Notes under the pieces: model-generated
Database searches by the model: none
Seen by the model: only the letters and a program-made list of their open reading frames with translations
What the model was told of the DNA's origin: nothing
Shown: one piece after another, positions 1,080 through 46,699 of the stretch
Position numbering within the stretch: the stretch's first letter is position 1
Layout: each line of letters opens with the position of its first letter
Assembly: GCA_964016885.1 (NCBI GenBank)
Contig: OZ024740.1
Span: 374,914,001-374,978,000 of the forward strand
Origin: Eledone cirrhosa
Taxonomy: Eukaryota
Direction of reading: 5' to 3'
Length of the DNA: 64,000 nt
Program-made: the position numbers and the translations under genes

Positions 1080-1117
<38 letters not shown>
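1..1117 (+). mobile_element. Tx1/L1-clade non-LTR retrotransposon copy A: 3' end (degenerate ORF2 C-terminus, 3' UTR, AATAAA, (ATT)n tail); cut by the window edge
   Basis: Near-identical to 38870-39989. In-frame stops; AATAAA near 1070 followed by (ATT)12 at 1082-1117. Confidence 0.9.
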
Positions 1118-1331
1118 GAATGCCATGGTTGACGGAGGCTCGGCTCTGTAAGGTATTGTAAATGTTAACCTCTATAACAATTGTAAATTGTTTAAAACTG
1201 TAACCAAATTGTGGACAAAAAAAACCTCCTACTCGTGAGAGGGGTCTTTCTGCACGTTATTTGGCCATTCGGGGTTAAATAACTGCTTATTGGGGTTTCG
1301 TGCCCAATATTTATTTTAAACCAAAAATTAC

Positions 1332-3248: not shown

Positions 3249-3282
3249 GTGGTCTTTCCCATCTTTTCCACTCCATTTCAAC

Positions 3283-6200: not shown

Positions 6201-6747
6201 ATGCTGACACGTATCTTCCGCATCCTAGTTCGCGCGGGAACCCCCTCAACGTCTCCAGTTTGTGCAGTAATGGCTCGAGAGTCAATACGTACAAGATAAA
6301 CTCTATAGGCATGGAGGTGCCGTCAGCCGGGCATGTCCGAGATGCGCGCAGGGTGACGAAACCGTCCTGCGCACTCGTCCAGTGTCCGAGCATTGCTGAC
6401 TTATGGTTTATGTCGAACACCTGCTGTCACGTGTAGGACGGATCCAGCTATCAGCTGAGTCCATCGTGAGGATTGCCCCGCCCTCTTCCTTTAGCCGGGA
6501 AGAGCAGGCAGTTTTTATCTGTCTGGTGGCCATGGCGAAAGAGATAGTATGGTGGACACGTTTGAAAGGGCTGAAGACGAGCAATTACCTCTTCGGTAAT
6601 GCTCTGATTAACTTTTTCAAATTTCATGTGAAAAGGAAAATCAGGCTAGAGAGGGAAGTGCTCTCTTTCAGGCATGTTGTTGAAACATGGGTGACAGAAG
6701 CAAGTATGGTCCGAGTGAATGGGCCTACTCTGAGTATGTGTCTGTAA
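3283..6747 (+). pseudogene. ORF2 (APE endonuclease + reverse transcriptase) of Tx1 copy B, disrupted
   Basis: SINARGL, ISET, VGDWN, SYLDR (APE motifs); RPITLLN, RQGCPLS, YADG in place of YADD (RT); several stops and frameshifts. Confidence 0.9.
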
Positions 6748-7021
6748 ATTAAAGGTGGAAAACTGGGAGAGGGCACTTGCCCTGGTGGTCAGGGTCAGTG
6801 GCCTTTTAATGGGCTTTCTCCACAAATGTTACCCGGAAGTCTCCCCCCTATTGGGGAATTTTTCATTGTTATTTTTTATTACATCCTCTGTTTTTTTTTA
6901 CACGCACAGATGCCCATTTGTACCGTCCTGTATTGTCATGTACTGTCCTTAATGTCTACTTTATGTAAACCCTTGTGGTTAATAAAGAGAGCATTATTGT
7001 TATCATTATTTTCTTTATTTT

Positions 7022-7400
7022 TAGGGTCGGACGCCATGCTTTGACGCATAGAGTTACAGCCCTTTCCATTCTGAGTTCAAATCCCGTCGAGGTTAACTTT
7101 GCCTTTCATCCTTACGGGGTCGATAAAATAAAGTACCATTAATGTACTCGTACATTATGGCATCGATGATGGTGTTATGGAACAGTGAAAATGAAACACG
7201 AGTCAAAGGAAGAAACAAAATCTAACTCCCTGAAAAGTGAGGTTGTTTTGTTAGTCCCTGTTATTACTGCAACCACATATTCGCAAGTATCCGTGTCCAG
7301 CAATTGTCACCGGGGGTACATAATGTACTGGTACAGTAATGTACTGGGTAATTACTAGCCTTGTGCCAATAGTAAAAACAATTATTTTTTTTATTTTTAT
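7022..7400 (+). mobile_element. tRNA-derived SINE with Deu/Nin-like core, 5'-truncated and interrupted by a ~157 bp insertion
   Basis: B-box-like GAGTTCAAATCCC and core GCCTTTCATCCTTACGGGGTCGATAAAATAAAGTACC; matches the copies at 23255-23433 (-) and 61281-61455 (+). Confidence 0.75.
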
Positions 7401-7849
7401 TATTTTTATTATTACTATTTTGAAGCGACGTGAAAACCCTTCTTGAATTCGGTTCCAAATATTTCAAATGTGTTTAATCCTTTTTTTTCATGTTCTCCAC
7501 TTATCTCTCAGTATTTAACTTTATAAAATATTAAAAATAAGTAAACCTGTTCTCCGCATTTATGGTGGTCTTGTTTGAAGGGACATCCCTACAGGCGTGT
7601 CAAACAGACAAAAATGGTTTTCCTTATTTGTTTTTCAACACTAACATGACTTCCCCGACATCACGGCGTTATTCCGAAACTATAAATAAATTAAGTAGAG
7701 GGAGCAAATTGTGTTCAGCGTCTGTAAACAACAAACGATAGAGAAAAACAAAGAACGAAATCCTAATACATTTGAATTAAGTGAAATGAAAACGCTTGTC
7801 ACAAAAGAATACCAACACGTCAATCTTTTGAAAAACAAATTGGAGAGAA

Positions 7850-18932: not shown

Positions 18933-18966
<34 letters not shown>

Positions 18967-20721: not shown

Positions 20722-20759
<38 letters not shown>

Positions 20760-23254: not shown

Positions 23255-23433
23255 TGTTTCTACTTTAGGCACAAGGCCAGAAATTTACCAGTACATTACT
23301 GGTACTTTATTTTATCGACCCCGTAAGGATGAAAGGCAAAGTTAACCTCGGCGGGATTTAAACTCAGACTATAAAGGGACGTAACTATGCTAGAAAGTAT
23401 GGCGTCCAACCCTCTACCGATACTGCCAATTCA
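23255..23433 (-). mobile_element. tRNA-derived SINE with Deu/Nin-like core
   Basis: Reverse complement aligns with 61281-61455. Confidence 0.8.
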
Positions 23434-25992: not shown

Positions 25993-26627
25993 GAAACCGT
26001 CCTGCATGCACTCGTCCAGTGTCCGAGCATTGCTGACTGGTGGGTTTATGTCGAACACCTGCTGTCGCGTGTAGAACGGTTCCTACTATCAGCTGAGTCC
26101 ATCGTGAAGATTGCCCCGCCCTCTTCTTTTAGTCGGGAAGGGCAGGCAGTTTTTCTCTGTCTGTTGGCCATGGCGAAAGAGGTAGTATGATGGACGCGTC
26201 TGAAAGGGCTGAAGACGAGCACTTACCTCTGATTAACCTTTTCAAATTTCCTTTGAAAAGGAGAATCAGGATAGAGAGAGAAGTGCTCTCTTCCCAGATT
26301 TTTGTTGAAAGCTGGGTGAGAGAAGCAAGAATGGCCCGAGTGAGTGAACCTACTCTGAGTATATGCCTGTAAATTGAAGGTAGAAAACTAGGAGAGGACA
26401 ATTGCCCTGGTGATCAGGGTCACCGTGGCCTTTTTAATGGGATTTCTCCACGATGGCCCTCGGAAGTCTCTCCCCTATTGGGGAATTTTTCATTGTTCTA
26501 TTATTACATCCTGTGTTTTTTTTTTTGTTTTTTACACGCAGAAATGCCCATGTGTACCGACCTGTATTGTCCTGTACTGTTTTAATGTCTACTTAGTGGG
26601 AAGACTTGTGGTTAATAAAGAAAGCAT

Positions 26628-26659
<32 letters not shown>

Positions 26660-26661
26660 TT
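25993..26661 (+). mobile_element. Tx1 copy C, 5'-truncated 3' fragment with (ATT)n tail
   Basis: Aligns to 39317-39989; AATAAA then (ATT)n at ~26627-26661. Confidence 0.9.
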
Positions 26662-26876
26662 GAATGCTATGTTTGACGGAGGCTCGGCTCTGTAAGGTAT
26701 TGTAAATTTTGACCGCTATAACAATTGTAAATAGTTTAAAACTGTAACCAACTTGTAGGCAAAAACACCCTCCTCCTAGTGAGATGGGTCTTTCTGCCCG
26801 TTATTTGGCCCTTCGGGGTTAAATAACAGCTTATTGGGGTTTTGTGACCAATATTTATTTTAAACAAAAAAACAAC

Positions 26877-28992
26877 ATGGCTACGAAAAAGAATTTTACT
26901 AGGTCACTCCCACTTATTCCGTCTTCTTCTTCCTCAATCGTCACTACAACAGAGAGAAGATTGTCTCTCTCCCTCTCGTCTTTAAATGTGTCTCTCTCCC
27001 TCCCTTCTCTTTCGCAAGCGACGACAGAAAAGAAAAGTCTCGTGCAAAGCGTGCAAGATTTCTACACGACCAGACGACAACGACGAGACGACAACGACGA
27101 AACAGGTGTGCGGGAAATACGAAAACCCATTTCATTCGTCTGACGTCAGGAATAATATCAGTAGCAGCCGTAATAGCAACAGCAACAGTGACAATGAAAA
27201 CAACAGTAGCAGCCGCAACATCATCAGCAGCAGCATAAACAACAACAGCATTAACAGCAGCAACAACAACAACAACCACAGCAACAGCGGCAGCGGCAGT
27301 TAGTACCTGCAGATAAAACAAAAGTAACAGCGGCTCTGACGACAACAACAACAACAACATCAGCAAAGAAAAACCAATCTCGTTTGCAGGTATCGCAAAG
27401 AACCTGGAAACGATCCTCATAACAAATGAGGAATTAGAGGAAGCGAAGAACATGGTGACAAAAACTGGACACCGACCAATCTGCAAGGCAGCGGAAACAT
27501 TTTTCGAAACCCAACAGCACTGTACGGTCACGTACCGTACAGTAAGTACAAAATCCCGTAGGGTTGAAAGAGCCACAGAGGCTCAAATAAGACTTTGGGT
27601 CTGTTTGGCAGCGGAAAACGCACATCACCCGAGGCAAGAAATATGCCACCGTAGACGTACTTTTTGCCACACCCCGGGAGGCAAAGGATCAATCCGTAGT
27701 GACCCTAAGGAGCGAGGAAATGGTGTTGGTGCTCTCCTACTGCGGGCAAAAAATTGCGAGGGTCAAACTGACCCACATCCCCCACGGGATGACCCCTTCT
27801 TGGCTGGCCGCGTCTGTCCTCGTCGGAATCGAGGATAAAACAACTGTACTGCAAGTACAGAAAAAAGTAAGAGAAGATTGGTTCGACACCTCCATTGAGA
27901 TGTTAATCCAAACCAACCAGGAGTGCATCGAAGCTATCGCGGGTGTGATAGACTTCGATAACGGCACTCAATTGCCCATAAGTGTTGAGGGCAAACGCCC
28001 GAAATGCTTTCGCTGTGGATCGAAGACTCACCTCAGGGCCTTCTGTAACGAGAAGACCCTGAGAAAGGAGAAAACCCCCCTCCTTCCGAAACCGGCTCCA
28101 CGGCTACCAGCAACAGGACAAGCGGCAACCAGGAACGATAGGTCCGTGGCACCCATACCCACGCCACGGAAATTAAAAACAGCAGCAGCAGTGGAAGTAT
28201 TAGCAACAACAACAGCAATACCAAATACAGCTGCAACAGAGACTCCAGTGCAAACATCACCAACAACAACAAGTGAAAGAGTGGAGCTGGTACCCCTGCC
28301 CGACCTCACAGAATCAGACATGGAGTGTGAGGTGGGAGAGGGATGGCAAAAGGTCGTAAGAAGGCACAAACGCAGAAGCAGCGTATCGTCGCCTTCGAAA
28401 AGGGAGGAAAGAAATGAAAAAAGGGTAAAGGCTACTGCAAATAGACTCACAGCAGCAACACCACCAACACCATCACCACCCACACTAGCACCACCATCAC
28501 CACCGGAGACAACCCCACCGCCAACAACAACAACACATTCAACACCACCACCACAAGCACCAACATCGCAAACACAACAACAACAGACACACACCCAGCA
28601 ACAACGACAAGAAAATAGCAGAACCACACCCCACCCCCAGAAAAACAAATGCACAGCAATAAATACACACAACAAGAAACTAATGACTTACATAATTGAA
28701 CACACAGACATTTCACAACACGACTACATAATACCAGCACCAATCAAAACGCCAACTAACATAAGACTGCTAAAAATAGCACAGAAACAATACACGAACA
28801 TGAAAACGAAATTCCCCAACGCAGTTGGTGATTTCAGAGATCTAGGAGGGACTCTCAATCGAAGAGTATATTCGGACATACTCATAGAAGAGACGATAAC
28901 AAGCAGAAGGGACGATTCAACGGTCCCTTCACTAGACGATCAAGTGAAAAGGGATGGAAAAAATCATCCCTCCTCTACGAAAAGTACGGTAA
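26877..28992 (+). pseudogene. ORF1 of copy D (CCHC zinc knuckle, Ser/Asn-rich and Pro/Thr-rich segments)
   Basis: CFRCGSKTHLRAFC = CX2CX4HX4C; frameshifts in the 5' half. Confidence 0.88.
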
Positions 28993-29027
28993 GTGGTCTT
29001 TCCCATCTTTTCCACTCTGTTTTAAAC

Positions 29028-32000
29028 ATGACCTCACACAGAATAGGCAGCATAAATGCGCGTGGCTTGGGGTCGTCATGAAAGCAGGGTCTCCTGCTCA
29101 ACGATCTCAGGTCACTAAACATAGATGTAGTGGCCATCAGCGAGACTAGAATCTCCGAAGCACGGGCCTTCGCACCGATCTTCGGCGGCTACGATGTGTA
29201 CGCATCTCCCAGCCGTCCTGGATCGGGGGGTGGAGTTGCTGTGCTTTTTCGGAGAGGTTTGGATCTCGCCATACGGGCCATCTTCCTGGACCCAGAGGGT
29301 AAGTTGGTGGTGCTGGACGTGACCAGCGGAGACGGGCAAGCTTTCAGACTAGTGGCCGTCTATGCCCCGACAGGAGCAGGGCGGCCTGATTTCTTCCGGC
29401 GTCTGGAGACCTTTCTTGGAGCGTCCCGCTCTTTAGTGTTAGTGGGCGACTGGAACGGGATCTTAGATGCACGCTGGGACTGTGTGGGATTAGCTGATAG
29501 GGGTGGAGGGTGCAAGAGCCTCACCAACCTGCTCATGCGTTTTGAACTGTGTGACAGGTACCGATTGGATTTCCCGAATGTGCCAATGTGGACTTGGACA
29601 AATCGCATAGTTTCATCCAGATCATATCTAGATAGAGTATTTTGTAGGGAAATAGATAGGTCTAGCATAGGCTGTCCACAATTCAAGATAGTCAGCAGTT
29701 ACACGGACCACAATTTCGTGAGCTGTGTGCTTCACTTAGATAGGCTTCATAGACGAGGACCCGACTACTGGAAGCTAAACGCGTCCTTACCAGCGCGCAA
29801 GGCCTACAGAGACCGGATTCGCGAACTAGTTAAGCGGGTGTTGACGGGGGCCATCGTCAACAACAGGTGGTGGTTTGCTCTGAAAAGAGCGATTAGAATA
29901 GAATCCATTAGGTTTAGTAAGGCTTTAGCAATAGAGAAAAATAGAGTAGAGGGACAATTAGTTAGAAAATTAGACGAGGCGCTTAGCAAAGGCATTGCGA
30001 CCGACGTGCTTGCGTCAAAATCGGCCCTTGACCAATTCTTCAATGCAAAGCACGAAGGCTGCGTTGTCAGAGCTAGGGTGCGTGCTCTCAGACACGAGGG
30101 GACGAAAGCTGTTCAATGGGCCCGAGTGGCGGAGGCGCGTCGTGGCAACACAGCCAGGATAGGTCTTTGGTGGACCACGACGGGCACATGCTACTCGATC
30201 CCGGGCAAATGTGTGAAGCTTTTCAGCGACACTTCACTCAGCTGTTCGGGGGGCAGCGGTGGGCCGGGTAGAGGGATGGACTTTAGTGTCTACCTCGACG
30301 GACTGCCGCGGCTCTCGGCCACTGAGGCGGAGTGTTGCGAAAAGCCGATAACAGCCGCTGAAGTAAGGGAGGCAATGACTGGCTGCACAAGGGGTAAATC
30401 GCCTGGTTTGGATGGTCTGCCCTATGAACTTAACGTACAGATGCCAGACTTGTTCGGAGGCCTTTTGGCGGACGCCTACTGCAACTGGCAACAGAACGGG
30501 AGAATTCCCAGTTCTGTGAGCCGAGGAGCGGTGGAACTGCTGAGAAAGGATCCGCACAAAGGGGATAACATAGATAATTTCATGCCCATAACTCTGCTAA
30601 ACACAGAGTTCAAGATTTTGGCCAAGGTGCTAGCAAAGAGGTTGGCGCTTCTCGTTGGTGGTCTGGTGGGGGAGGCGCAGACATGCGCCATTCCCGACAG
30701 ATCCATCCACGACAACCTCCACCTCATGCGATACATCGTAGAGAGGGTAGCTAGGGAACCTGGCACGGGTGGGTCCTTGATCGATTTAGATCAGTCGAAA
30801 GCTTTCGATAGGGTCGACCATCGTTACCTAGCGGCAGTCCTGAGGGCGACTGGCTTTGGGCCCGTCTTCAGAGGCTGGACGGCTGCCATGCACAGCGACA
30901 TCTGCTCTGTGGTGAGAGTGAACGTCACCTTTCAGAAAAGTTCAACATCATGCGCTCGGTCCGCCAAGGATGTCCCCTCTCGTCCCTCTTGTACGTATTG
31001 ACTCTCAAGCCATTACTGCACAAACTGGAGACGTTGAGGGGAGTCCCGCGCGAACTAGGATGCAGAAGATCCGTGTCAGCATATGCGGACGATGTCACCG
31101 TAGTGGTGTCGAACGCCAAACACATCGAGGCTATCGGCACTACACTAAGAGAATACGAAGCGGTGAGAGGAGCAATGATCAACCAGGACAAGTCAGTGGG
31201 CCTGCAGCTCGGCACCTGGAGAGACAGGTTCATGCCGTCCAACAGCGTCGTCGGACGCTGGACGGACGGACCGGTTAAATTGCTAGGGGTCTGGTTCGGT
31301 CCGGACCTCCAGACGGACAACAACTGGGACGAGGTGACGAGCAGATTGGCTTCTCTCACCCAGAAATGGGCGGAGAGGAAGCTAACCCTGAAAGGTCGAG
31401 CGGAGGTGGCTAACGCGTACATCGCGTCTGTCATCTGCTACCGCCTGACCGTCGTACCTTGTCCTAAGCCCCGCCTCACTGCGCTGGAGCGTTTGCTCTT
31501 TCGCTTTTTGTGGAAGGGACGCGCTCCGATGGTCAGGCGGTCCATCTGTTGTCAACACCCGCTACGTGGGTGGCTGGGCATGCCGTGGCTGATGATGCGC
31601 AGGCACGCGCTCAGGCTACGACATCTCCACCTATTCCTCGACGGTGATCAGGTGTGGTCCTCGTTTGCTAGACATGTATTTCCCCAGCTCGTTTCCTTGA
31701 CGGAGCTGCAGTCCTGGGTCAAGCGAAGACCGAGAGGGAGCGCCTGGAGACTGGAATGTCTTCAGGAGCTCACAGCCCTCGACCAATCGGGCAATGTGAT
31801 CGATGGAAACTCCACCTCGGCGTTCTATAGAGGATTAGTGGAGGGGAAGAGCGACGAAGTACTTGGGGAAACTCTAGGCGTCGACGAAAATCAACTAGCC
31901 AATCTCTTCGGAAGAACTTTCGGGCCAGGGCCTATGGACAACTTCCAGAAATCTCTGGCCTGACAGTGCTACCGAGGAGCCTTGACAGTTCGGGATAAAC

Positions 32001-32446
32001 TCTACAGGCATGGAGGTGCCGTCAGCCGAGCATGTCCGAGATGTGCGCAGGGCGACGAAACCTTCCTGCACGAACTCGTCCAGTGTCCGAAAATTGCTGA
32101 CTTGTGGGTTTATGTCGAACACCTGCTGTCGCGTGTAGGACGGATCCGGCTATCATATGAGTCCATCGTGAGGATTGCTCCGCCCTCCTTTAGCCGGGAA
32201 GAGCAGGCAGTTTTTATCTGTCTGGTGGCCATGGCGAAAGAGATAGTATGGTGGACACGTTTGAAAGGGTTGAAGACGAGCACTTACCTCTTCGGTGATG
32301 CCCTGATTGACTTTTTCAAATTTCATTTGAAAAGGAAAATCAGAGTAGAGATGGAAGTGCTCTCTTCCCAGCATTTTGTTGAAAGATGGGTGAGAGAAGC
32401 AAGAATGGCCCGAGTGAATGGGCCTACTCTGAGTATATATCTGTAA
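29028..32446 (+). pseudogene. ORF2 of copy D (APE + RT + C-terminal Cys/His motif)
   Basis: TGG>TGA at 29079, frameshifts, stop at 31961; KAFDRV, QGCPLS, YADD, CPRC..ET..H..C. Confidence 0.92.
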
Positions 32447-32714
32447 ATTAAAGGTGGGAAACTGGGAGAGGTCACTTGCCTTGGTTGTCAGGGTCACTGT
32501 GGCCTTTTACTGGGCTTTCTCCACAAATGTCCCTCCGAAGTCTCCCCCCTATTGGGGAATTTTTCATTGTTATTTCTTATTACATCCTCTGTTTTTGTTT
32601 TTACACGCAGAAATGCCCATTTGTACCGTACTGTATTGTCCTGCACTGTCCTTAATGTCTACTTTATGTAAACCCTTGTGGTTAATAAAGAAATCATTAT
32701 TATTATTATTATTA

Positions 32715-33963
32715 CAGTTGCATTTATCTTGCTTTATGTTCATACGAGTTATTGCCAAGTCACAACCAGTGACCTCAAGAGACAACAAGGTCCGCCATGT
32801 TCAAGAAAGAATGCATCTATAGTGTTTAGACTTGTGATGTACTTATATTGACAGAATCTTCCTTAGTATATGGGCAGTTCCAATTAGTAATATCTTTTCT
32901 ATTTCTCCTATACGCGGGTTTCCTGTGATTTGCGATAAGTAATCATTAGACCCCTTAGGTATCATTCCCAGAGCGCCTACAACCACTGGTATTGTTTTAG
33001 TTCTCAATTTTCACATTTTTCCAATTTCTATCTCCAGGTTGCTCAATTTTTCAAATGTTTTTATAGATACATTCTTGTCTATTGGAACGGACATATCAAT
33101 TAGCAGGCATACCCTCTTGTTAAAGTCCTTCAATATTATATCAGGTCTATTTGCATCTATTTTTCGGTCTGTTTGGATGCTAAAGTTCCACAAGATTGAG
33201 ATGTGATCTTTTTCAAGTATGGGAGGTGATTGATGCTCCCACCAATTCTTTTGATGGGGCAGGTCAAAATGCTTACACATTATCCAATGTATGTATTGTG
33301 CAGTTCTGTCATGCCTGTTTAGGTATTCGGTTGGAGCTATAGGACTGCACATTGAAATTATATGGTCAATGGTCTCTGGTTGTTTTTTGCATACACGGCA
33401 TAATGGGCTGCATCCATTTTTTATTATGTTGGCTTGGTAATCTTTCGTTGGCAGACACTGATCTTGTGCTAATATAATCAGTCCTTCAGTCTCCGATTTC
33501 AGTGCAGAGGATGCCAACCACTGATGGGTTAAAGTTTTGTCAACATCAGGATTGTTAGCTCGCTCTGGGTATTTTCCATACAGAGGCTTTTCTTGCCATT
33601 TCTTAGCCAGTTTCTGTAGCAGTTCTTTCTTTGCAGTTACTTTTACCTGCTTTGCTTTTTCTGTGTTTTCCATTTCAGCAGTAAATGGGACTTCTGAAAT
33701 TTGTAGTCCATTACTGTATCTTTGTGCATTTTTTTGTAATGGAATATGATCTTTTGATGCTTTCGTGTTTCAAAACGAGTTTGATCATCCAATCATGTGA
33801 TTCCCTTAGATATGTAGATAATCCAATTGTTGCAGTTTTCAACGCAATGTCTAACTGGATTAACCCACATCCTCCTTCTTTCCTAGGGAGATATATTCTA
33901 TCTGTATCTGCCTTAGGGTGATGAATTTTGTGCATGGTTAAGAGTTTTCGAATTTTTTTATCG
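32715..33963 (-). mobile_element. R4/Dong-like RLE non-LTR retrotransposon, family 2, 5'-truncated; (TAA)n on both sides
   Basis: HHPKADTDRIYLPRKEGG, ETEG..AQDQ, CRVC..ETIDHIISMC, RHD, RPDII..IDMSVP, LLIGTAHILRKILS; coding ~32843-33963 with frameshifts. Confidence 0.88.
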
Positions 33964-34206
33964 TTATTATTATTATTATTATTATTATTATTGAATGCCA
34001 TGGTTGACGGAGACTCGGCTCTGTAAGGTATAGTAATTTTTAACCGTTAAAACTATTGTAAATTGTTTAAAACTTGAACCAAATTGTTGATAAAGACACC
34101 CTCCTCCTCGTGAGAGGGGTCTTTCTGTCCGTTATTTGGCCCTTCGGGGTTAAATAACCAGTTATTGGGGTTTTGTACCCAATATTCATTTTAAACAAAA
34201 AACAAC

Positions 34207-36302
34207 ATGGCTACGAAAATGAAATTTCATACGTCACTCCCACTCATTCCGTCTTCTTCTTCCTCAATCATCACTACACCAGAGAGAAGATTGTCTCTCT
34301 CCCTCCCTTCTTTAAATGTGTCTCTCTCCCTCCCTTCTCTTTCGCAAGTGACGAAAGAAAAGAAAAGTCTCGTGCAAAGCGTGCAAGGTTTCTCCACAAC
34401 GACGACGACAGCGACGAAACAGGTGTGCGGGAAATACAAAAACCCAGTTCATTCGTCTGACGTCAGGAATAATAGCAGTAGCAGCCGTAATAACAACAGC
34501 AACAGTGACAATGAAAACAACAGTAGCAGCCGCAACAGCATCACCAGCAGCATAAACAACAACAGCATTAGCAGCAGCAACACCAACAATAACCACAGCA
34601 ACAGCGGCGGAGGAAGTAGTCGTAGTACCTGCAGCAACAACAAAAGTACCAGCAGCTCTGACGACAACAACAACAGCAGAGAAAAACCAATCTCATTTGC
34701 AGGTATTGCGAAAAACTTGGAAACAATCCTCATAACAAATGAGGAATTAGAGGAAGCGAAGAAGATGGTGACAAAGAACGGACACCGAGCAATCTGCAAG
34801 GCAGCGAAAAATTTTTTCGAAACCCAAGAGCACTGTACGGTCACGTACCGTACAGTAAGTACAAAATCCCGTAGGGTGGAAAGAGCCACAGAGGCCCAAA
34901 TACAAAAAGCCTTGGGGTCTGTGTGGCAGCGGAAAACGCACATCACCCGAGGTAAAAAATATGCCACCGTAGACGTACTTTTTGCCACACCCCAGGAGGC
35001 AAAGGCCCAATCAGTAGTGACCCTAAGGAGCGAGGAAATGGTGTTGGTGCCCTCCTACTGCGGGCAAAAAATTGTGAGGGTTAAACTGACCCACGTACCC
35101 CCCGGAATGACCCCTTCTTGGCTGGCCGCGTCTGTCCTCGTCGGAATCGAGGACAAAACAACTGTACTGCAAGTACAGAAAAAAGTAAGAGAAGATTGGT
35201 TCGGCTCCTCCATTGAGATGCTAATCCAAACCAACCAGGAGTGCATCGAAGCTATCCCGGATGTGATAGACTTCGATAACGGCACTCAACTGCCCATAAG
35301 TGTTGAGGGCAAACGCCCGAAATGCTTTCGCTGTGGATCGAAGACTCACCTCAGGGCCTTCTGCAACGAGAAGACCCTGAGAAAGGAGAAAACCCCCCTC
35401 CTTCCGAATCCGGCTCCACGGCTACCAGCAACAGGACAAGCGGCAACCAGGAACGATAGGCCCGTGGCACCCATACCCACTCCACGGAAATCAAAAACAG
35501 CAGCAGCAGTGGAAATACTAACAACAACAACTGCAATACCAAATACAGCTGCAACAGAGACTCCAGTGCAAACATCACCAACAACAACAAGTGAAAGAGT
35601 GGAGCTCGTACCCCTACCCGACCTCACAGAATCAGACATGGAGTGTGAGGTGGGAGAGGGATGGCAAAAGGTCGTAAGAAGGCACAAACGCAGAAGCAGC
35701 GCATCGTCGCCTTTGAAAAGGGAGGAAAGAAATGAGAAAAGGGTAAAGTCTACTGCAAAGAGACCCACAGCAGCAACAACACCAACACCATCACCACCCA
35801 CACTAGCACCACCATCACCACCGGCGACAACCCCACCGCCAACAACACCTTCAACACCACCACCACAAGCACCAACATCGCAAACACAACAACAAAACAC
35901 ACACACCCAGCAACAACGACAAGAAAATAGCAGAACCACACCCCACCCCCAGAAAAACAAATGCACGGCAATAAATACACACAACAAGAACCTAATGACT
36001 TACATAATTGAACACACAGACATTTCACAACAGGACTACATAATACCAGCACCAATCAAAACGCAACTAACATAAGACTGCTAAAAATAGCACAGAAACA
36101 ATACACAAATATTAAAACGAAATTCCCCAACGCAGTTGGTGATTTCAGGGACCTAGGAGGAACCATCAATCGAAGAGTATACTCAGACATTCTCTTAGAA
36201 GAGCCGACGACCAGCCGAAGGGACGATTCAACGGTCCCTTCACCAGACGATCAAGTGAAAAGGGATGTAAAAACCATCCCTCCTCTACCAAAAGTACGGT
36301 AA
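34207..36302 (+). pseudogene. ORF1 of copy E (gag-like, CCHC); 1-bp deletion near 36064
   Basis: 622 aa open. Restoring one C (ACGCCAAC as in copy D) extends the frame to TAA at 36300-36302. Confidence 0.9.
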
Positions 36303-36337
36303 GTGGTCTTTCCCATCTTTTCCACTCTATTTTAAAC

Positions 36338-39300
36338 ATGACCTCACTCAGAATAGGCAGCATAAATGCGCGTGGCTTGGGGTCGTCATGGAAGCAGGGT
36401 CACCTGCTCAACGACCTCAGGTCACTAAACATAGATGTAGTGGCCATCAGCGAGACCAGAATCTCCGAAGCACGGGCCTTCGCACCGATCTTCGGCGGCT
36501 ACGATGTGTACGCATCTCCCAGCCGTCCTGGATCCGGTGGAGGAGTTGCTGTGCTTTTTCGGAGAGGTTTGGATCGCGCCATACGGGCCATCTTCCTGGA
36601 CCCAGAGGGTAAGCTGGTAGTGCTGGACGTGACCAGCGGAGACGGGCAAGCTTTCAGGCTAGTGGCCGTCTATGCCCCGACAGGAGCGGGGCGGCCTGAT
36701 TTCTTCCGGCGTCTGGAGACCTTTCTTGGAACGTTCCGCTCTTTAGTGTTAGTGGGCGACTGGAACGGGATCTTAGATGCACGCTGGGACTGTGTGGGAT
36801 TAGCGGATAGGGGTGGAGGGTGCAAGAGCCTCACCAACCTGCTCAGGCGTTTTGAACTGTCTGACAGTCACCGATTGGATTTCCCGAATGTGCCAATGTG
36901 GACTTGGACAAACCTCATAGGGTCATCCAGATCATATCTAGATAGAGTATTTTGTAGGGAAATAGATAGGTCTAGCATAGGCTGTCCACAATTCAAGATA
37001 GTCAGCTACACGGACCACAAATACGTGATCTGTGTGCTTGACTTAGATAGGCTTCATAGACGAGGACCCGGCTACTGGAAGCTAAACGCGTGCTTACCAG
37101 CGCGCAAGGCCTACAGAGACCGGATTAGCGAACTAGTTAAGCGGGCGTTGACGGGGGCCATCGTCAACAACAAGTGGTGGTTTGCTCTGAAAAGAGCGAT
37201 TAGAATAGAATCGATTAGGTTTAGTAAGGCTTTAGCAATAGAGAAAAATAGAGCAGAGGGAGAACTAGTTAGAAAATTAGACGAGGCGCTTAGCAAAGGC
37301 ATTGCGACCGACGTGCTTGCGGTGAAATTGGCCCTTGACCAATTCTTCAATGCAAAGCACGAAGGCTGCGTTGTCAGAGAAAGGGTGCGTGCTCTCAGAC
37401 ACGAGGGGACGAAAGCCGTTCAATGGGCCCGAGTGGCGGAGGCGCGTCGTGGCAACAAAGCCACGATCCGGTCTTTGGTGGACCACGACGGGCGCATGCT
37501 ACTCGATCCCGGGCAAATGTGTGAAGCTTTTCAGCGACACTTCGCTCAGCTGTTCGAGGGAAGCGGTGGGCCGGGTAGAGGGATGGACTTTAGTGTCTAC
37601 CTCGACGGACTGCCGCGGCTCTCGGCCACTGAGGCGAAGTGTTGCGAAAAGCCGATAACAGCCGCTGAAGTAAGGGAGGCAATGACTGGCTGCACAAGGG
37701 GTAAATCGCCTGGTTTGGATGGTCTGCCCTATGAACTTTACGTACAGATGCCAGACTTGTTCGGAGGCCTCTTGGCAGACGTCTACTGCAACTGGCAACA
37801 GAACGGGAGAATTCCCAGTTCTGTGAGCCGAGGAGCGGTGGCACTGCTGAGAAAGGATCCGAACAAGGGGGATAACATAGAAAATTTCCGGCCCATAACT
37901 CTGCTAAACACAGAGTTTAAGATTTTGGCCAAGGAGCTAGCAAAGAGGTTGGCGCTTCTCGTTGGTGGTCTGGTGGGAGAGGCGCAGACATGCGCCATTC
38001 CCGACAGATCCATCCACGACAACCTCCACATCATGCGATACATCGTAGAGAGGGTAGCTAGGGAACCTGGCACGGGTGGGTCCTTGATCAATTTAGATCA
38101 GTCGAAAGCTATCGATAGGGTCGACCATCATTACCTAGCGGCAGTCCTGAGGGCGGCTGGCTTTGGGCCCGTCTTCAGAGGCTGGATCGCTGCCATGCAC
38201 AGCGACATCTGCTCTGTGGTGAGAGTGAACGGTCACCTGTCGGAAAAGTTCAACATCATGCGCACGGTCCGCCAAGGATGTCCCCTCTCGTCCCTCTTGT
38301 ACGTATTGAGCCATTACTGCACAAACTGGAGACGTTGAGGGGAGTCCCGCGCGAACTAGGATGCGGAAGATCCGTGTCAGCATATGCGGACGATGTCACC
38401 GTAGTGGTGTCGAACGCCAAACACATCGAGGCTATCGGCACTACACTAAGAGAATACGAAGCGGTGACAGGAGCAATGATCAACCAGGAAAAGTCAGTGG
38501 GCCTGCAGCTCGGCACCTGGAGAGGCAGGTCCATGCCGTCCAACAGCGTCGTCGGACGCTGGACGGACGGACCGGTTAAATTGCTAGGGGTCTGGTTCGG
38601 GCAGGGTGGCTTCTCTCACCCAGAAATGGGCGGAGAGGAAGCTATCCCTGAAAGGTCGAGCGGAGGTGGCTAACGCGTACATCGCGTCTGTCATCTGCTA
38701 CCGTCTGACCGTCGTACCTTGTCCTAAGCCTCGCCTGACTGCGCTGGAGCGTTTGCTCTTTCGCTTTTTGTGGAAGGGACGTGCTCCGATGGTCAGGCGG
38801 TCCATCTGTTGTCAACACCCGCTACGTGGAGGGCTGGGCATGCCGTGGCTGATGATGTGCAGGCACGCGCTCAGGCTACGACATCTCCACCTCTTCCTCG
38901 ACGGTGATCAGGTGTGGTCGCCGTTTGCTAGGCGCGTATTTCCCCAGCTCGTTTCCTTGACGGAGCTGCAGTCCTGGGTCAAGCGAAAACCGAGAGGGAG
39001 CGCCTGGAGACTGGAATGTCTTCAGGCGCTCACAGCCCTCGACCAATCGGGCAATGTGATCGGTGGAAACTCCACCTCGGCATTCTATAGAGGATTAGTG
39101 GAGGGTAAGAGCGACGACGTACTTGGGGAAACTCTAGGCGTCGACGAAAATCAACTAGCCAATCTCTTCGGAAGAACTTTCGGGCCGGGGCCTATGGACA
39201 ACTTCCAGAAATCTCTGGCCTGGCAGTGCTACCGAGGAGCCTTGCCAGTTCGGGATAAACTCTACAGGCATGGAGGTGCCGTCAGCCGGGCATGTCCGAG

Positions 39301-39709
39301 ATGCGCGCAGGGCGACGAAACCGTCCTGCACGCACTCGTCCAGTGTCCGAAAATTGCTGACTTGTGGGTTTATGTCGAACACCTGCTGTCGCGTTTAGGA
39401 CGGATCCAGCTATCATCTGAGTCCATCGTGAGGATTGCCCCGCCCTCATCCTTTAGCCGGGAAGGGCAGGCAGTTTTTATCTGTCTGGTGGCCATGGCGA
39501 AAGAGATAGTATGGTGTACACGTTTGAAAGGGCTGAAGACGAGCACTTACCTCTTCGGTGATGCTCTGATTGACTTTTTCAAATTTCACTTGAAAAGGAA
39601 AATCGGAGTAGAGATGGAAGTGCTCTCTTCCCAGCATTTTGTTGAAAGATGGGTGAGAGAAGCAAGAATAGCCCGAGTGAATGGGCCTACTCTGAGTATA
39701 TATCTGTAA
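36338..39709 (+). pseudogene. ORF2 of copy E (APE-RT), broken by a 7-bp and a 41-bp deletion
   Basis: ORFs 36338-38338, 38278-38673 and 38606-39709 tile one APE-RT protein; deletions at ~38309 and ~38600 relative to copy D. Confidence 0.93.
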
Positions 39710-39957
39710 ATTAAAGGTGGAAAACTGGGAGAGGGCACTTGCCTTGGTGGTCAGGGTCATTGTGGCTTTTTACTGGGCTTTGTCCACAAATGTCCCTCCG
39801 AAGTCTGCCCCCTATTGGGGAATTTTTCATTGTTATTTTTTGTTACATCCTCTGTTTTTGTTTTTTACACGCAGAAATGCCCATTTGTACCGTCCTGCAT
39901 TGTCCTGCACTATCCTTAATGTCTACTTTATGTAAACCCTTGTGGTTAATAAAGAAA

Positions 39958-39989
<32 letters not shown>

Positions 39990-39990
<1 letters not shown>

Positions 39991-42719
39991 CTTGAATCTC
40001 AGTCATTGATGTTGGTTAACTGGAAAGTCCGTTGGATTGAATATCAAGCCACTACCTGCAGCCTCAGGTATTCAGGACGTATCGGAGGGTTCTTGCTGTT
40101 CCAAGCAAGCATGCCTTTTGAAGCGTTCCAAAAAGCGTGAAGCGGCCGATTTTCTTTAACCATCCCTGGAAACTTTTGGAGATAGTCCCCAGTGCGCCTA
40201 TGACAATCGGGCTCACTTTGACTTCATGGCAGTTCCAAATCCTTTTCACCTCCCACTTTAGGTCCTGGTATCGGTTAATTTTCTCCCTCTCCTTCTCTTG
40301 CACTCTCGTGTCGAACGGGCAGGCCACATCCACAATCAGGCACGATCTTTTTTCTTTGTCCACAACCACCAGGTCAGGTCTATTGTGTTCCAGTTTTTTG
40401 TCCGTCTGTATCCTAAAATCCCACAGCACCTTCACCTGATTGTTCTCCATCACCGCCTCTGGCCTATGCTCATACCATTTCTCAGAATGTGGTAGATTGT
40501 TTACTTTGCACAGGTGCCAGTGGATCACCCTGCCCATCACATCGTGTCTCCAGCCCTTATAGTGGGTCTGGGCTAGGTGTTTACACTCGGACACAATGTG
40601 AGCCACAGTCTCCTCTCTCTCTCCACAGATCCTGCACAGTGGGCTGGCCTCCTCCTTGTAGATATGGTGCTTCAACCACTTCGTTTTGAGGGCCTGCTCC
40701 TGCGCAGCCATTAGCATTCCTTCTGTAGCCTTTTTGAGGTCTCCTCTTCTCAACCAGTTCCATGTCTGTGGATCTCTAAATTCAGTTTTCTCAAAGAAGG
40801 TACTATGAAGGGGTTTTCCCTTAAGGCTGCTCTTCCTCCTTGATGTTATTTCCTCCCTGTACATCCCCTGGCCTACTGTCCCCTCCTTCAGTACAGCTCT
40901 GAGCATTGGCTCCTTACTATAGGTCACGTATTTGTATAGGTTGTTTTTCTCCATCTGAACACAGTCCTCTATGCTGATAAGACCTCTTCCACCCTCAGAT
41001 CTCCTTAGGTAGAGTCTATCGACATCACTCCTCTTGTGGAACATGTTGTAGATAGTCAATAGCTTCCTGGTCTTCCTATCCATTTCTTTCTGTTCAGCAA
41101 CATTCCATCTCAGAATTCCCGCACTGTACCTAATAATAGACACAGCTCGGGAATTTACTGCGCTTATGGCATTTCTGCTGTTCAGATGTGACTTCAATAC
41201 GCTCCTTACTCTCCGAATGTATTCAGTTCTTAACAATTCCTTCATTTTTTTGTTCTTTATGCCATCAGCCTCCAGAACGCCCAAATACTTGTATCCTTCC
41301 TCAGAGTCAATTTCCCCTATCATCTCACCTGTTGGTATCTGGATCCCGTTACTTCTGCTCAACCTACCCCTCTTCATCACAATGACTCCACATTTACCAA
41401 TACCAAACTGCATACATATATCACTGCTGAAAATACGGACAGTGTCAACAAGCACATCCAACTCCTTCTCACTTTTCCCGAAGAGCTTAAGATCGTCCAT
41501 GAAGAGGAGGTGATTGATGGTAAGCTCTCCCCTTCCCAACTTGTATCCTGCTCTCACTTTTCGCAGCATAATGGTCAAGGGCATCAGGGCTAGGACAAAC
41601 AACAGAGGGGACAGGCTATCTCCCTGGAAGATACCTCTCTTGATCTTCACGCTTCCCAAGGATACTCCAGTTGATGTCAACTCTGTCTCCCAGGACCCCA
41701 TACTCCTGCCTAGCAACTGTCTGATGTTATCTGCAACCCTGAAGATCTCCAGGCTTTTGGTGATCCAGGAATGAGGCACCATGTCAAATGCCTTTCTGTA
41801 GTCTATCCATCCCATGGCAAGATCAGTGTGTCTCCTCCTGCAATTCCCCATTACCATCTTATCAATAAGCAACTGGTCATTTGTACCACGTGACTTCTTT
41901 CGGCATCCTTTCTGTTCGTCCGGTAACAAGTTGTTTGTGTGGAGGTGATGGTAGATTTCCTCAGACACAATGCTCGTCAACAGTTTCCACATTACGGGCA
42001 GACATGTGATAGGTCTATAGTTGGTAGCATCATTACCCTTGATTCGGTCTTTCATTATCAGAACTGTGGTACCTTTTGTCAACCACTCTGGCACCTCACC
42101 CGACACCAAGCAGTCATTGAACATGGCCGTCAGCTTCGGGTGGAGGGATGTTAGATGTTTAATCCAATACCCCTGCACACCATCTGGGCCTGGTGATTTC
42201 CAGTTGGTTAGTTTTTTGGCTTGCCCCTTAAGAGTTTCAACTGTGATACTCAAATCAGTCTGTTGCTGTGCCTGCTCACCGATCTCCCTCTGTACTGTCT
42301 CAATCCACCCTGCCTGGGCATTGTGTCTAACATCCTGCTCCCATATTCCTCTCCAGAATGTTTTTGTTTGCTCCGCCCCAGGGATCAAGTCGTTGCCTCT
42401 TTCTTTGCCCTCAAGCTGTCCAAACAGCATCTTCTGGTTGTTGTCGAACATGCGGTTCTGTTTATACTGACTGACTCTGTTCTCGTATCGCCTGATTTTT
42501 GCACTCTTTGCTACAATGCGTTGCTTCAATTCCTCTATGATAATATTCAGCTTTTTACTCCTAGTTTTGTATTTTATTTCCAGTCTATTTTTAGTGCCTA
42601 TGTTTTTTAGTGTCCCATTCAGTAGTGACTCAAGCTTTCCTATGTCATTTCCCATTTCCCCGATTTGCCCACTCAGTCGCTTCTTCCACCACGGCTCTGC
42701 TCTTTCTTGTCTGCTGTTT
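39990..42719 (-). mobile_element. R4/Dong-like RLE retrotransposon, family 1 copy a, 5'-truncated
   Basis: ~75 nt 3' UTR runs into (TAA)n; 5' end joins filler and (TAA)n at 42720-42755. Confidence 0.92.
40064..42655 (-). CDS. Uninterrupted RT + CCHC + restriction-like endonuclease ORF (863 aa, N-terminally truncated)
   Basis: NWKSPGPDG, YRPITCL, DYRKAFDMVPH, IFQGDSLSP, LFMDDLKL, CRIC..ETVAHIVSEC, RHD, RPDLV..VDVACP, K..RY.DL, LQKACLLGTAR. Confidence 0.9.
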   Translation of the reverse strand: MGNDIGKLESLLNGTLKNIGTKNRLEIKYKTRSKKLNIIIEELKQRIVAKSAKIRRYENRVSQYKQNRMFDNNQKMLFGQLEGKERGNDLIPGAEQTKTFWRGIWEQDVRHNAQAGWIETVQREIGEQAQQQTDLSITVETLKGQAKKLTNWKSPGPDGVQGYWIKHLTSLHPKLTAMFNDCLVSGEVPEWLTKGTTVLIMKDRIKGNDATNYRPITCLPVMWKLLTSIVSEEIYHHLHTNNLLPDEQKGCRKKSRGTNDQLLIDKMVMGNCRRRHTDLAMGWIDYRKAFDMVPHSWITKSLEIFRVADNIRQLLGRSMGSWETELTSTGVSLGSVKIKRGIFQGDSLSPLLFVLALMPLTIMLRKVRAGYKLGRGELTINHLLFMDDLKLFGKSEKELDVLVDTVRIFSSDICMQFGIGKCGVIVMKRGRLSRSNGIQIPTGEMIGEIDSEEGYKYLGVLEADGIKNKKMKELLRTEYIRRVRSVLKSHLNSRNAISAVNSRAVSIIRYSAGILRWNVAEQKEMDRKTRKLLTIYNMFHKRSDVDRLYLRRSEGGRGLISIEDCVQMEKNNLYKYVTYSKEPMLRAVLKEGTVGQGMYREEITSRRKSSLKGKPLHSTFFEKTEFRDPQTWNWLRRGDLKKATEGMLMAAQEQALKTKWLKHHIYKEEASPLCRICGEREETVAHIVSECKHLAQTHYKGWRHDVMGRVIHWHLCKVNNLPHSEKWYEHRPEAVMENNQVKVLWDFRIQTDKKLEHNRPDLVVVDKEKRSCLIVDVACPFDTRVQEKEREKINRYQDLKWEVKRIWNCHEVKVSPIVIGALGTISKSFQGWLKKIGRFTLFGTLQKACLLGTARTLRYVLNT

Positions 42720-42755
42720 ACTTATTTATTGTCTATTATTATTATTATTATTATT

Positions 42756-45700
42756 CCTTGAATCTCAGTCATTGATGTTGGTTAACTGGAAAGTCCGTTG
42801 GATTGAATATCAAGCCACTACCTGCAGCCTCAGATATTCAGGACGTATCGGAGGGTTCTTGCTGTTCCAAGCAAGCATGCCTTTTGAAGCGTTCCAAAAA
42901 GCGTGAAGGGGCCGATTTTCTTTAACCATCCCTGGAAAACTTTGGAGATAGTCCCCAGTGCGCCTATGACAATCGGGATCACTTTGACTTCATGGCAGTT
43001 CCAAATCCTTTTCACCTCCCACTTTAGGTCCTGGTATCGGTTAATTTTCTCCCTCTCCTTCTCTTGCACTCTCGTGTCGAACGGGCAGGCCACATCCACA
43101 ATCAGGCACGATCTTTTTTATTTGTCCACAACCACCAGGTCAGGTCTATTGTGTTCCAGTTTTTTGTCCGTCTGTATCCTAAAATCCCACAGCACCTTCA
43201 CCTGACTGTTCTCCATCACCGCCTCTGGCCTATGCTCATACCATTTCTCAGAATGTGGTAGATTGTTTACTTTGCACAGGTGCCAGTGGATCACCCTGCC
43301 CATCACATCGTGTCTCCAGCCCTTATAGTGGGTCTGGGCTAGGTGTTTACACTCGGACACAATGTGAGCCACAGTCTCCTCTCTCTCTCCACAGATCCTG
43401 CACAGTGGGCTAGCCTCCTCCTTGTAGATATGGTGCTTCAACCACTTCGTTTTGAGGGCCTGCTCCTGCGCAGCCATTAGCATTCCTTCTGTAGCCTTTT
43501 TGAGGTCTCCTCTTCTCAACCAGTTCCATGTCTGTGGATCTCTAAATTCAGTTTTCTCAAAGAAGGTACTATGAAGGGATTTTCCCTTAAGGCTGCTCTT
43601 CCTCCTTGATGTTATTTCCTCCTTGGATATCCCCTGGCCTACTGTCCCCTCCTTCAGTACAGCTCTGAGCATTGGCTCCTTACTATAGGTCACGTATTTG
43701 TATAGGTTGTTTTTCTCCATCTGAACACAGTCCTCTATGCTGATAAGACCTCTTCCACCCTCAGATCTCCTTAGGTAGAGTCTATCGACATCACTCCTCT
43801 TGTGGAACATGTTGTAGATAGTCAATAGCTTCCTAGTCTTCCTATCCATTTCTTTTTGTTCAGCAACATTCCATCTCAGAATTCCCGCACTGTACCTAAT
43901 AATAGACACAGCTCGGGAATTTACTGCGCTTATGGCATTTCTGCTGTTCAGATGTGACTTCAATACGCTCCTTACTCTCCGAATGTATTCAGTTCTTAAC
44001 AATTCCTTCATTTGTTTGTTCTTTATGCCATCAGCCTCCAGAACGCCCAAATACTTGTATCCTTCCTCAGAGTCAATTTCCTTTATCATCTCACCTGTTG
44101 GTATCTGGATCCCGTTACTTCTGCTCAACCTACCCCTCTTCATCACAATGACTCCACATTTACCAATACCAAACTGCATACATATATCACTGCTGAAAAT
44201 ACGGACAGTGTCAACAAGCACATCCAACTCCTTCTCACTTTTCCCGAAGAGCTTAAGATCGTCCATGAAGAGGAGGTGATCGATGGTAAGCTCTCCCCTT
44301 CCCAACTTGTATCCTGCTCTCACTTTTCGCAGCATAATGGTCAAGGGCATCAGGGCAAGGACAAACAACAGAGGGGACAGGCTATCTCCCTGGAAGATAC
44401 CTCTCTTGATCTTCACGCTTCCCAAGGATACTCCAGTTGATGTCAACTCTGTCTCCCAGGACCCCATACTCCTGCCTAGCAACTGTCTGATGTTATCTGC
44501 CACCCTGAAGATCTCCAGGCTTTTGGTGATCCAGGAATGAGGCACCATGTCAAATGCCTTTCTGTAGTCTATCCATCCCATGGCAAGATCAGTGTGTCTC
44601 CTCCTGCAATTCCCCATTACCATCTTATCAATAAGCAACTGGTCCTTTGTACCACGTGACTTCTTTCGGCATCCTTTCTGTTCGTCCGCTAACAAGTTGT
44701 TTGTGTGGAGGTGATGGTAGATTTCCTCAGACACAATGCTCGTCAACAGTTTCCACATTACGGGCAGACATGTGATAGGTCTATAGTTGGTAACATCATT
44801 ACCCTTGATTCGGTCTTTCATTATCAGAACTGTGGTACCTTTTGTCAACCACTCTGGCACCTCACCCGACACCAAGCAGTCATTGAACATGGCCGTCAGC
44901 TTCGGGTGGAGGGATGTTAAATGTTTAATCCAATACCCCTGCACACCATCTGGGCCTGGTGATTTCCAGTTGGTTAGTTTTTTGGCTTGCCCCTTAAGAG
45001 TTTCAACTGTGATACTCAAATCAGTCTGTTGTTGTGCCTGCTCACCGATCTCCCTCTGTACTGTCTCAATCCACCCTGCCTGGGCATTGTGTCTAACATC
45101 CTGCTCCCATATTCCTTCCAGAATGTTTTAGCTTGTTCCGCCCCAGGGATCAAGTCGTTGCCTCTTTCTTTCCCCTCAAGCTGTCCAAACAGCATCTTCT
45201 GGTTGTTGTCGAACATGCGGTTCTGTTTATACTGACTGACTCTGTTCTCGTATCGCCTGATTTTTGCACTCTTTGCTACAATGCGTTGCTTCAATTCCTC
45301 TATGATAATATTTAGCTTTTTACTCCTAGTTTTGTATTTTATTTCCAGTCTATTTTTAGTGCCTATGTTTTTTAGTGTCCCATTCAGTAGTGACTCAAGC
45401 TTTCCTATGTCATTTCTCATTTCCCCGATTTGCCCACTCAGTCGCTTCTTCCACCACGGCTCTGCTCTTTCTTGTCTGTTGTTTCCTCTCGCTTTTATAC
45501 CAAGTAGTTTCCTCACCGTATTTGCTGTTGCTTTGAGGATATTGTTGCACTGGTGAAGAAACCTCGCCTCAAGGTATGGGATGACTTTGTTTACCTTAGC
45601 TGTTGTTTCTTTTAACTTTTTCCTGTCTACAAATCTTAGGTTCATAGGTCTCCCACTATCATTGTTCAACTCATCTACCACTAAATTTAGGATGTCAACC

Positions 45701-45872
45701 GAATCTTGTCCTAGCCCGTCAGCATTCATCTCCTCAGTGGCCGTATCTCTGTTCCAGGTATTATTTATCTCAGTATTCAGATCATTGTCTGCTTCGGGTG
45801 GTTCGTCCGTTCTCTTCATTTCCCGCCGGCTCGCTTGTCTGGCATACTACACCCGCCATCTCCAAGCCATTC
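42756..45872 (-). mobile_element. R4/Dong-like family 1 copy b, longer 5' extent, with stop and frameshifts
   Basis: Near-identical to copy a; ORFs 42830-43099, 43118-45019 and 45016-45819; (TAA)n at 42734-42755 and 45873-45924. Confidence 0.92.
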
Positions 45873-45925
<53 letters not shown>

Positions 45926-46699
45926 CATTATATATATATATATATAATCCAGACAGGAATAGGAACTATGATAAATAAAAAATACTAGCATTAAAGTAAT
46001 ACCGACGACAAACACCAGTATTAGCACTGCTAGCAATTAACAAATGATTTGTCAAATCCACTATTCTGAAATATATCCCTTAACCTTCTATGACATATCA
46101 ACGACAAACATCGAAAATAAATGATAACAATATTGAAAAAAACAACTTTAACTTATTTTTACAGTGATATTGACGTATGTGTAGTATATGTAATATCCAC
46201 AGATAACAAATGAATGCGAAGGACGATAATAAAAAATAATTATTGAAATATAGTTCTTATTTAATATGAAAAATAAATAACAGAAACTATGAATATCAAA
46301 CTGTATCTATAGAATACTTACAAAACATTGTAGGACTACACAAATGAATGTATCAAATGTAATATTAGAAATATCTAAAGATAGAAATATTGATGATGCC
46401 AACATCGCAAACATGGTCTTAGTTAAATAAGTAAACATTATCATGTTGACTTGAATAATATATTAAAGTAAAAGAAATAGTATATTGCACTTTTACATTC
46501 ATCCATATCAAGACGTTTTTCTGAAAAGACAATGGAGCTTGATATTGATGGTGAGTTATCACCGATAATACACGTGAAAGCATGTTCAACTGAGTGTCTA
46601 TTGATATGGATACCTTCTTTAAATCATAGATATATATTGTAACATATTATATTATACCGAAGACCTTGCAGAAGGCGAATGAAGCAATACATCTTCGGC

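Follow-up and report, generated by a model that had tools for sequence, protein, structure and literature searches.

A 64,000-nucleotide stretch of the Eledone cirrhosa genome (assembly GCA_964016885.1, contig OZ024740.1, positions 374,914,001 to 374,978,000; hereafter the window) contained an array of about 20 kb in which six copies of non-long-terminal-repeat retrotransposons, from two unrelated endonuclease classes, alternated with ATT microsatellite. Three copies on the plus strand were L1/Tx1-like elements with an apurinic-like endonuclease (APE), and three on the minus strand were 5'-truncated Dong/R4-type elements with a restriction-like endonuclease (RLE). The anatomy of the array, its orientation and domains, and the independent origin of neighbouring copies were established. 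We tentatively explain it, with a confidence somewhat short of even, by six separate insertions in which the Dong-type elements would cut TAA repeats and the APE family would land in ATT by means of an ATT-bearing 3' end of its RNA.

Organization of the array and its ATT tracts

The separators between the six copies were (ATT)6-16, and no copy was inserted inside another. The array began with copy C (25993..26628, plus strand), an L1/Tx1-like copy of an older subfamily of which only the 3' 636 bp was present and whose left flank had no clear ATT tract. An (ATT)7 TTT (ATT)3 tract (26629..26661; all tracts are given on the plus strand) separated C from D (26662..32695, plus strand), a full-length L1/Tx1-like copy; its open reading frames, ORF1 with a CCHC knuckle and ORF2 with APE, reverse transcriptase (RT) and CCHC, both contained stops and frameshifts. 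The next tract, (ATT)6 (32696..32713), lay on the 3' side of both D and R4fam2 (32714..33965, minus strand), a 5'-truncated Dong/R4-type copy of 1252 bp. The (ATT)9 tract at 33966..33992 was flanked by two 5' ends, those of R4fam2 and of copy E. The latter (33993..39959, plus strand) was a full-length L1/Tx1-like copy with ORF1 from 34203 and ORF2 at 36338-39709 in three frames, and ended in a poly(A) signal, five or six bases and then the ATT run. Between E and R4fam1a stood (ATT)10 (39960..39989). R4fam1a (39990..42719, minus strand), a 5'-truncated Dong/R4-type copy, retained an open frame of 885 codons with RT, CCHC and a PD..D nuclease motif. A 15-nt filler, which repeated a 6-mer of the adjoining element end, and (ATT)7 (42720..42755) joined it to R4fam1b (42756..45875, minus strand), a 5'-truncated Dong/R4-type copy of 3120 bp with 98.7% identity to R4fam1a. 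On the outer right flank the array ended in (ATT)16 ATC ATT and then (AT)n (45876..45946). All six copies were broken or truncated.

The order and strands given in the preliminary description (C>, D>, <R4fam2, E>, <R4fam1a, <R4fam1b, with ATT between) were confirmed, as were its observations that no element interrupts the body of another and that APE elements read ATT and RLE elements TAA, in fixed opposite orientation. Its statement that every internal junction is microsatellite stood with two corrections, the filler being 15 nt instead of about 14 and the tract between C and D being interrupted by TTT.

Perfect tracts of at least four ATT units numbered seven in the window and totalled 201 bp (0.3%). 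Because all seven adjoined copies of the APE or R4 families, the association between tracts and elements was not due to chance. A looser scan for ATT added just two decayed tails, that of copy B (below) and that of one short interspersed nuclear element (SINE). On the left flank of C, 15 of 24 bases fitted (ATT)8, a score that 1% of background 24-mers and 5% of local ones equalled or exceeded in a post hoc comparison. The remainder of copy C was not found to its left when 7050-26000 was scanned.

A second chain lay 20 kb from the main array, outside the region originally described, and read A > (ATT)12 > B > decayed ATT tail > SINE. Copy A (1..1081, plus strand), clipped by the window start, was an L1/Tx1-like copy of the same older subfamily as C. 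An (ATT)12 tract (1082..1117) separated it from copy B (1118..6992, plus strand), which was L1/Tx1-like, full length and decayed. The decayed ATT tail of B (6993-7022) was followed by a 5'-truncated tRNA-type SINE in the same orientation, tail and SINE together spanning 6993..7421, and an apparent 18-nt ATT-like duplication stood on both sides of the SINE. Within B, the 158 bp at 6139-6296 repeated 5244-5401 of the same copy in inverted orientation (99%) and replaced a short stretch of ORF2.

Probable origin of the copies by serial insertion

A tree of the 3' 630 bp shared by the L1/Tx1-like copies grouped (B,(D,E)) against A and C with a bootstrap of 100, and 13 sites were common to A and C. 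The pairs A>B and C>D thus unite different subfamilies and are not tandem duplicates. Among the ORF2 changes specific to D or E, 43/101 were synonymous, compared with 28-31% expected without selection (p 0.001-0.01); by copy, the counts were 26/59 in D, 17/42 in E (not significant) and 54/172 in B (not significant). This excess of synonymous changes indicates that D and E likely derive from different source elements. Since neighbours were mostly not closest relatives and D and E showed this excess, the array was likely built by serial separate insertions and not by tandem duplication, which upholds the growth by serial insertion proposed in the preliminary description.

R4fam1a and R4fam1b differed by just 33 substitutions and one gap, evenly distributed over codon positions, and had two minority alleles in common. 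Either a duplication or a pair of insertions from a common source would account for such a difference; an insertion of R4fam1a would be favoured because the 5' end of this copy is its own and adjoins a filler templated locally. The similarity of these two copies is one of the points that would suit an array produced by tandem duplication, or by misassembly at the ATT tracts. Another is that the array junctions were not bridged by reads: the reads of four runs were mapped on 32400-42900 with the ATT tracts left out of the mapping, and none of the contigs listed spans the stretch. Such an origin is nevertheless very improbable, given the different subfamilies in A>B and C>D, the excess synonymous change in D and E, the separate 5' end and templated filler of R4fam1a, tract lengths of 18-33 bp and a window without N. 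Misassembly of the array is unlikely.

Divergences to the near-identical contigs of run X1 were 2.0% for D, 1.9% for R4fam2 and 1.3-1.4% for E (Fisher p 0.11-0.19). This run carries another organism label; over 32400-42900 each of the three families was represented in it by contigs of 98-99% identity, covered thinly and evenly (depth 16-40), and in the RT region a related family was present at much greater depth. Contamination, low-copy sharing and transfer were indistinguishable. Runs with other organism labels at 0.06-0.29 share were left out as evidence of range.

The Dong/R4-type elements

Domain searches separated the two endonuclease classes as the preliminary description had proposed, one being APE-RT-CCHC and the other RT-CCHC-RLE. 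The R4 elements encoded RT (RVT_1, 3e-23), a C-terminal CCHC and a PD..D restriction-like endonuclease in one ORF, and their best solved relatives were R2 proteins, with a weak match across the PD..D region. R4fam2 and R4fam1 shared 37% protein identity over the CCHC-RLE part. All three copies lacked the N terminus, where the Dong/R4 clade has a Myb/SANT-like domain without zinc fingers (PMC7998251).

(TAA)n was present on both flanks of all three R4 copies, in one case via the 15-nt filler. Of the R4 relatives fetched, 6/18 (L001, L002, L008, L009, L011, L015) had TAA at the 5' junction; in L001 and L002 the tract stood 0.4-1 kb upstream of the protein match. The remaining 12 ended within the element, were far more divergent or had no tract at the 5' junction. 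The target of Dong is (TAA)n in most insects, molluscs and cnidarians (PMC7998251; PMC3812793), although PMC3812793, contrary to PMC7998251, places Dong among the APE types. The TAA targeting assumed for these elements in the preliminary description was therefore borne out by the window copies, by the six relatives and by PMC7998251. On their domains and TAA flanks we assign the R4 elements to the Dong/R4 type, none of the 120 listed relatives bearing a family name. The Dong/R4 half of the array is known biology. A scan of viral contigs with a single R4 protein gave no match.

Four divergent R4-like elements of G004 (L012, L013, L017, L018) stood in same-strand clusters with no TAA tracts. In the window, an old Dong/R4-type remnant (55425-56250, plus strand) ended in (TAA)3; just upstream, with no tract between, lay an older L1/Tx1-like fragment (54220-54860, plus strand) with 65-73% identity to copy E. 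In run X10, 133 reads showed an R4fam1 3' fragment with an imperfect ATT run after it and then a join to position 37500, next to an SphI site; the join is probably a ligation chimera, and these reads were counted solely as one weak extra R4 junction.

The L1/Tx1-like family

ORF2 of the plus-strand family matched Exo_endo_phos, RVT_1 and zf-RVT in Pfam, and its best relative of solved structure was human L1 ORF2p (E 3e-34 across APE and RT). Two ORFs, an ORF2 with APE, RT and a C-terminal CCHC, and L1 ORF2p as nearest relative place the family in the L1 group. A CX2CX4HX4C knuckle was visible in ORF1, which had no curated Pfam match; as a lead, its Atlas neighbours were zf-CCHC and ZCCHC3-type RNA-binding clusters (0.90-0.93). 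ORF1 of type I (RRM-like plus zf-CCHC) fits Tx1 in non-mammalian animals (PMC5203782), and the ORF1 of this family was of that type. From these features the family is assigned to the L1 group with a Tx1-like ORF1, no named Tx1 sequence being among the relatives compared. Its nearest named relative was an Argonauta hians protein (57%), a match that by itself would make an octopod host likely.

No further copies of the family were detected in metagenome, viral or GTDB contigs by scans with DNA pattern and protein. Five further genomes contained no close relative, and the one weak match was the R4 locus itself. In run X4 the summed contig depth was 1-8.6 x 10^5 per bin, compared with 4-14 for the individual contigs listed; in run X10, one R4fam1 restriction site was the start of 138,995 reads. 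Both the APE and the R4 families are high-copy, depth here not being equal to copy number. Octopus vulgaris has abundant and recently active L1-Tx1 and Dong-R4 elements (13 families with 421 insertions and 5 with 1129, respectively), and the supplement counts 80 L1-Tx1 and 51 Dong-R4 families (PMC13282606). L1-Tx1 and Dong-R4 are old coleoid repeats, with Tx1 nested in the L1 clade (PMC8967140, PMC3747384, PMC9004415).

A sister clade in other animals

Relatives of the plus-strand family were recovered from animal-like contigs within bacterial genome records, namely C3-C15 and C17-C19 of G003 (L049-L061, L063, L064, L069-L083) and C16 of G001 (L065). These contigs held dozens of intact, near-identical L1/Tx1-like copies, and no description of the clade was found. 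In an RT tree of 42 rows, midpoint-rooted and with no named references, copy E grouped with P0002 and Argonauta (100/98), and this group was joined with the sister clade (100/99). The window family and the sister clade shared about 51% identity over RT.

The sister-clade elements formed head-to-tail arrays with a period of 6.4-6.8 kb. None of 68 sister 3' ends (one counted twice via overlapping stretches) was followed by ATT or TAA repeats; after the first 36 came another copy in 28 cases, flank in four and the stretch edge in four. The 3' end consisted of a hairpin and a poly(A) signal, with no poly(A), and was followed by a spacer of 12-17 nt. Each contig group had its own terminal hairpin variant and spacer, and no common target motif was seen among the spacers. 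In L061 the spacer was found again on the 5' side of the array's first copy, and in L065 it flanked a lone copy at either end; because of this recurrence it looks like a target duplication. In contig C9 the spacer stood ahead of full-length copies, one 5'-truncated copy and genomic flank, and in C19 a single spacer stood ahead of three different 5' starts. Such varied 5' starts after one spacer speak for insertion having occurred repeatedly, and unequal exchange has probably contributed further units. In the sister lineage, new copies insert just downstream of an existing copy's 3' end, at a short spacer that recurs, and neither poly(A) nor a microsatellite is present there.

Target choice by the APE family

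All full-length APE 5' ends adjoined (ATT)n (3/3, in two chains 20 kb apart), and at all APE 3' ends (5/5) the poly(A) signal was followed by five to nine bases and then by ATT. A Tx1 family is regarded as target-specific when one target type is found in more than 20% of its flanks (PMC4494074); here ATT was present at 3/4 APE 5' junctions, all from one window, a sample on which the family is at most a candidate for such specificity.

Under the explanation we adopt, the Dong/R4-type elements likely cut TAA repeats, like their relatives. In the L1/Tx1-like lineage, transcripts cut soon after the poly(A) signal would include some 15 bases of flank; this RNA copy of the flank would pair with the nicked strand and let reverse transcription start where the DNA matches. 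The matching sites would be the spacers of the array itself in the sister clade. In the octopod branch the flank is (ATT)n in both chains and would pair with the nicked (AAT)n strand, so that orientation would be fixed and every ATT tract would be a target. Each insertion would leave a tract at both sides, and the site would persist and multiply for both classes. A co-transcribed target is reported to reinforce site choice (PMC4494074).

Several observations weigh against this explanation. All three ATT-adjoining APE 5' ends sit downstream of another family copy, the truncated copy C that starts its chain has no clear ATT tract on its 5' flank, and no APE copy in a free ATT tract was seen within the window. 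The APE-family 5' junctions number four in total and come from a single window, and divergence did not separate the insertion order of D, R4fam2 and E. In the sister clade, the 5' flank of the first copy had no spacer repeat in L056 and L059, and the arrays are a biased sample, being host contigs within bacterial records. For TRAS and SART the target is set by the endonuclease (PMC7265360). Finally, the hairpin region of the endonuclease has 8 residues in the octopod branch, whereas the sister clade has 10-12 there, a difference that would allow for an altered nuclease.

A changed nuclease is what the preliminary description proposed: the APE domain itself would have become specific for (ATT)n/(AAT)n, the situation presumed in Kibi and Koshi, and so have converged with the RLE of Dong. 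The ATT at all three full-length 5' ends would fit such specificity, as would a hairpin region shorter than in a sister clade that does not use ATT; moreover, Tx1 families exist for (TC)n, (TTC)n, (TTCC)n and (TTTC)n, and the endonuclease is said to be the main determinant of target choice (PMC4494074). However, successive copies in the sister clade already follow one another's 3' ends across unrelated spacers, and chains of this kind therefore need no microsatellite-specific nuclease. We regard an evolved APE specificity as somewhat unlikely. Convergent endonuclease specificity was not established, with the informative 5' junctions lying downstream of family copies and the sister arrays lacking a microsatellite; specificity of the APE family for (ATT)n as such was not established either, on account of the same junctions (3/3).

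Those junctions would also be expected if the sole target of the APE family were its own 3' junction, the ATT being a mere tail that Dong/R4 elements colonised, with R4fam2 arriving after E. The left flank of C and the same habit in the sister clade agree with this, and tails of this form appear to be common: in G005 the combination of a poly(A) signal and a trailing (ATT)5 gave 39 matches against 1 in a control, behind varied sequences. However, E lies 1.25 kb from the 3' end of D, its divergence (1.3%) is equal to or lower than that of R4fam2 (1.9%), though not significantly so, and a SINE also entered the ATT tail of B in the same orientation. Insertion at the family's own 3' junction alone is consequently judged rather improbable. 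The AATAAA-(ATT)n ends of G005 (20 + 3 contigs) had no tie to L1-group or R4 coding sequence and were rejected as a parallel case.

Guidance by the RNA flank could be carried further, to a general rule that we consider unlikely: the lineage would pick its target by its own RNA 3' end, each subfamily carrying the flank of its parent site and inserting at matching DNA, and the array-specific tandems of the sister clade would be the outcome. An octopod ancestor would then have captured (ATT)n, become microsatellite-specific without a new nuclease and come to share tracts strand-for-strand with Dong. If so, target choice would be re-programmable via about 15 bases of RNA. Guidance of insertion by the RNA flank as such, if real, would explain rapid target switching and the start of LINE (long interspersed nuclear element) tandems and would bear on LINE-based site-specific gene insertion. 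With APE and RLE elements on opposite strands of one repeat, both high-copy, the array offers a system in which to ask whether nuclease or RNA tail sets the target. The array also hints at a reason why repeat hotspots in octopuses might expand at microsatellites.

Other features of the window

The tRNA-type SINE was present in three copies (7023-7421, plus strand; 23250-23435, minus strand; 61286-61453, plus strand), two of which had target duplications starting with ATT repeats. Its 3' part carried a 10-11-nt motif that precedes the terminal hairpin in the sister L1/Tx1-like clade, and the SINE is possibly a partner of this LINE group. At 10455-15171, between long (AT)n tracts, a GIY-YIG-type ORF was duplicated in inverted orientation over 2.25 kb (98.8%); it had no Pfam match, and we take it to be Penelope-like from its motif pattern. 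An older Penelope-like remnant (24513-25310, minus strand) lay just left of copy C. The region 15327-18597 comprised a 1.8-kb (TA)n tract and then a unit of about 490 bp repeated about three times.

Comparison with known systems

In the literature searched we found neither an ATT-targeting L1/Tx1 family nor a mixed APE/RLE microsatellite array; the family may be catalogued in Repbase or Dfam, which lay outside the search. (ATT)n is likely a new target for an L1/Tx1-like family. TRAS and SART are both APE elements of the R1 clade. In Bombyx they likewise insert as two families into one repeat, (TTAGG)n, in opposite orientations (PMC7265360); their repeat is telomeric, whereas the array described here combines APE and RLE elements in an interstitial microsatellite. 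Among known microsatellite-specific Tx1 elements, Kibi inserts into (TC)n, Koshi into (TTC)n and crocodilian Tx1 into (TTCC)n/(TTTC)n (PMC4494074). The plus-strand family resembles them in its two ORFs, APE-RT, microsatellite insertion and fixed orientation. However, none of the targets of the Kibi/Koshi group was found for it, its flanks being (ATT)n, and its nearest relatives are the Argonauta protein and an unnamed clade without a microsatellite target. The RLE elements share RT-CCHC-PD..D and, in element sense, (TAA)n on both sides with Dong of the R4 clade (Bombyx Dong, DongAg, Biomphalaria DongBg, O. vulgaris Dong-R4); the difference is that here one tract is used by two families with 37% protein identity, and copies of an APE family lie among theirs.

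Keno (Tx1, APE) and Utopia (RLE) have reached one target in parallel, the U2 snRNA genes, but they use the same site and the same 3' flank in an RNA gene, and a mixed array is not described in the available part of the source (PMC4640811). A target shared by unrelated endonuclease classes and the use of one repeat in opposite directions have thus both been published already. Tandems formed by double insertion, in Drosophila (McGurk and Barbash, 10.1101/158386) and in SINEU-3 (PMC4494074), are similar in that insertion preserves and renews the target, the junctions hold duplicated target and 5'-truncated units represent separate events. The sister clade differs from such tandems in that its spacer varies between arrays, with no common target motif seen, and the Eledone array in that the preserved target is common to two unrelated classes of element.

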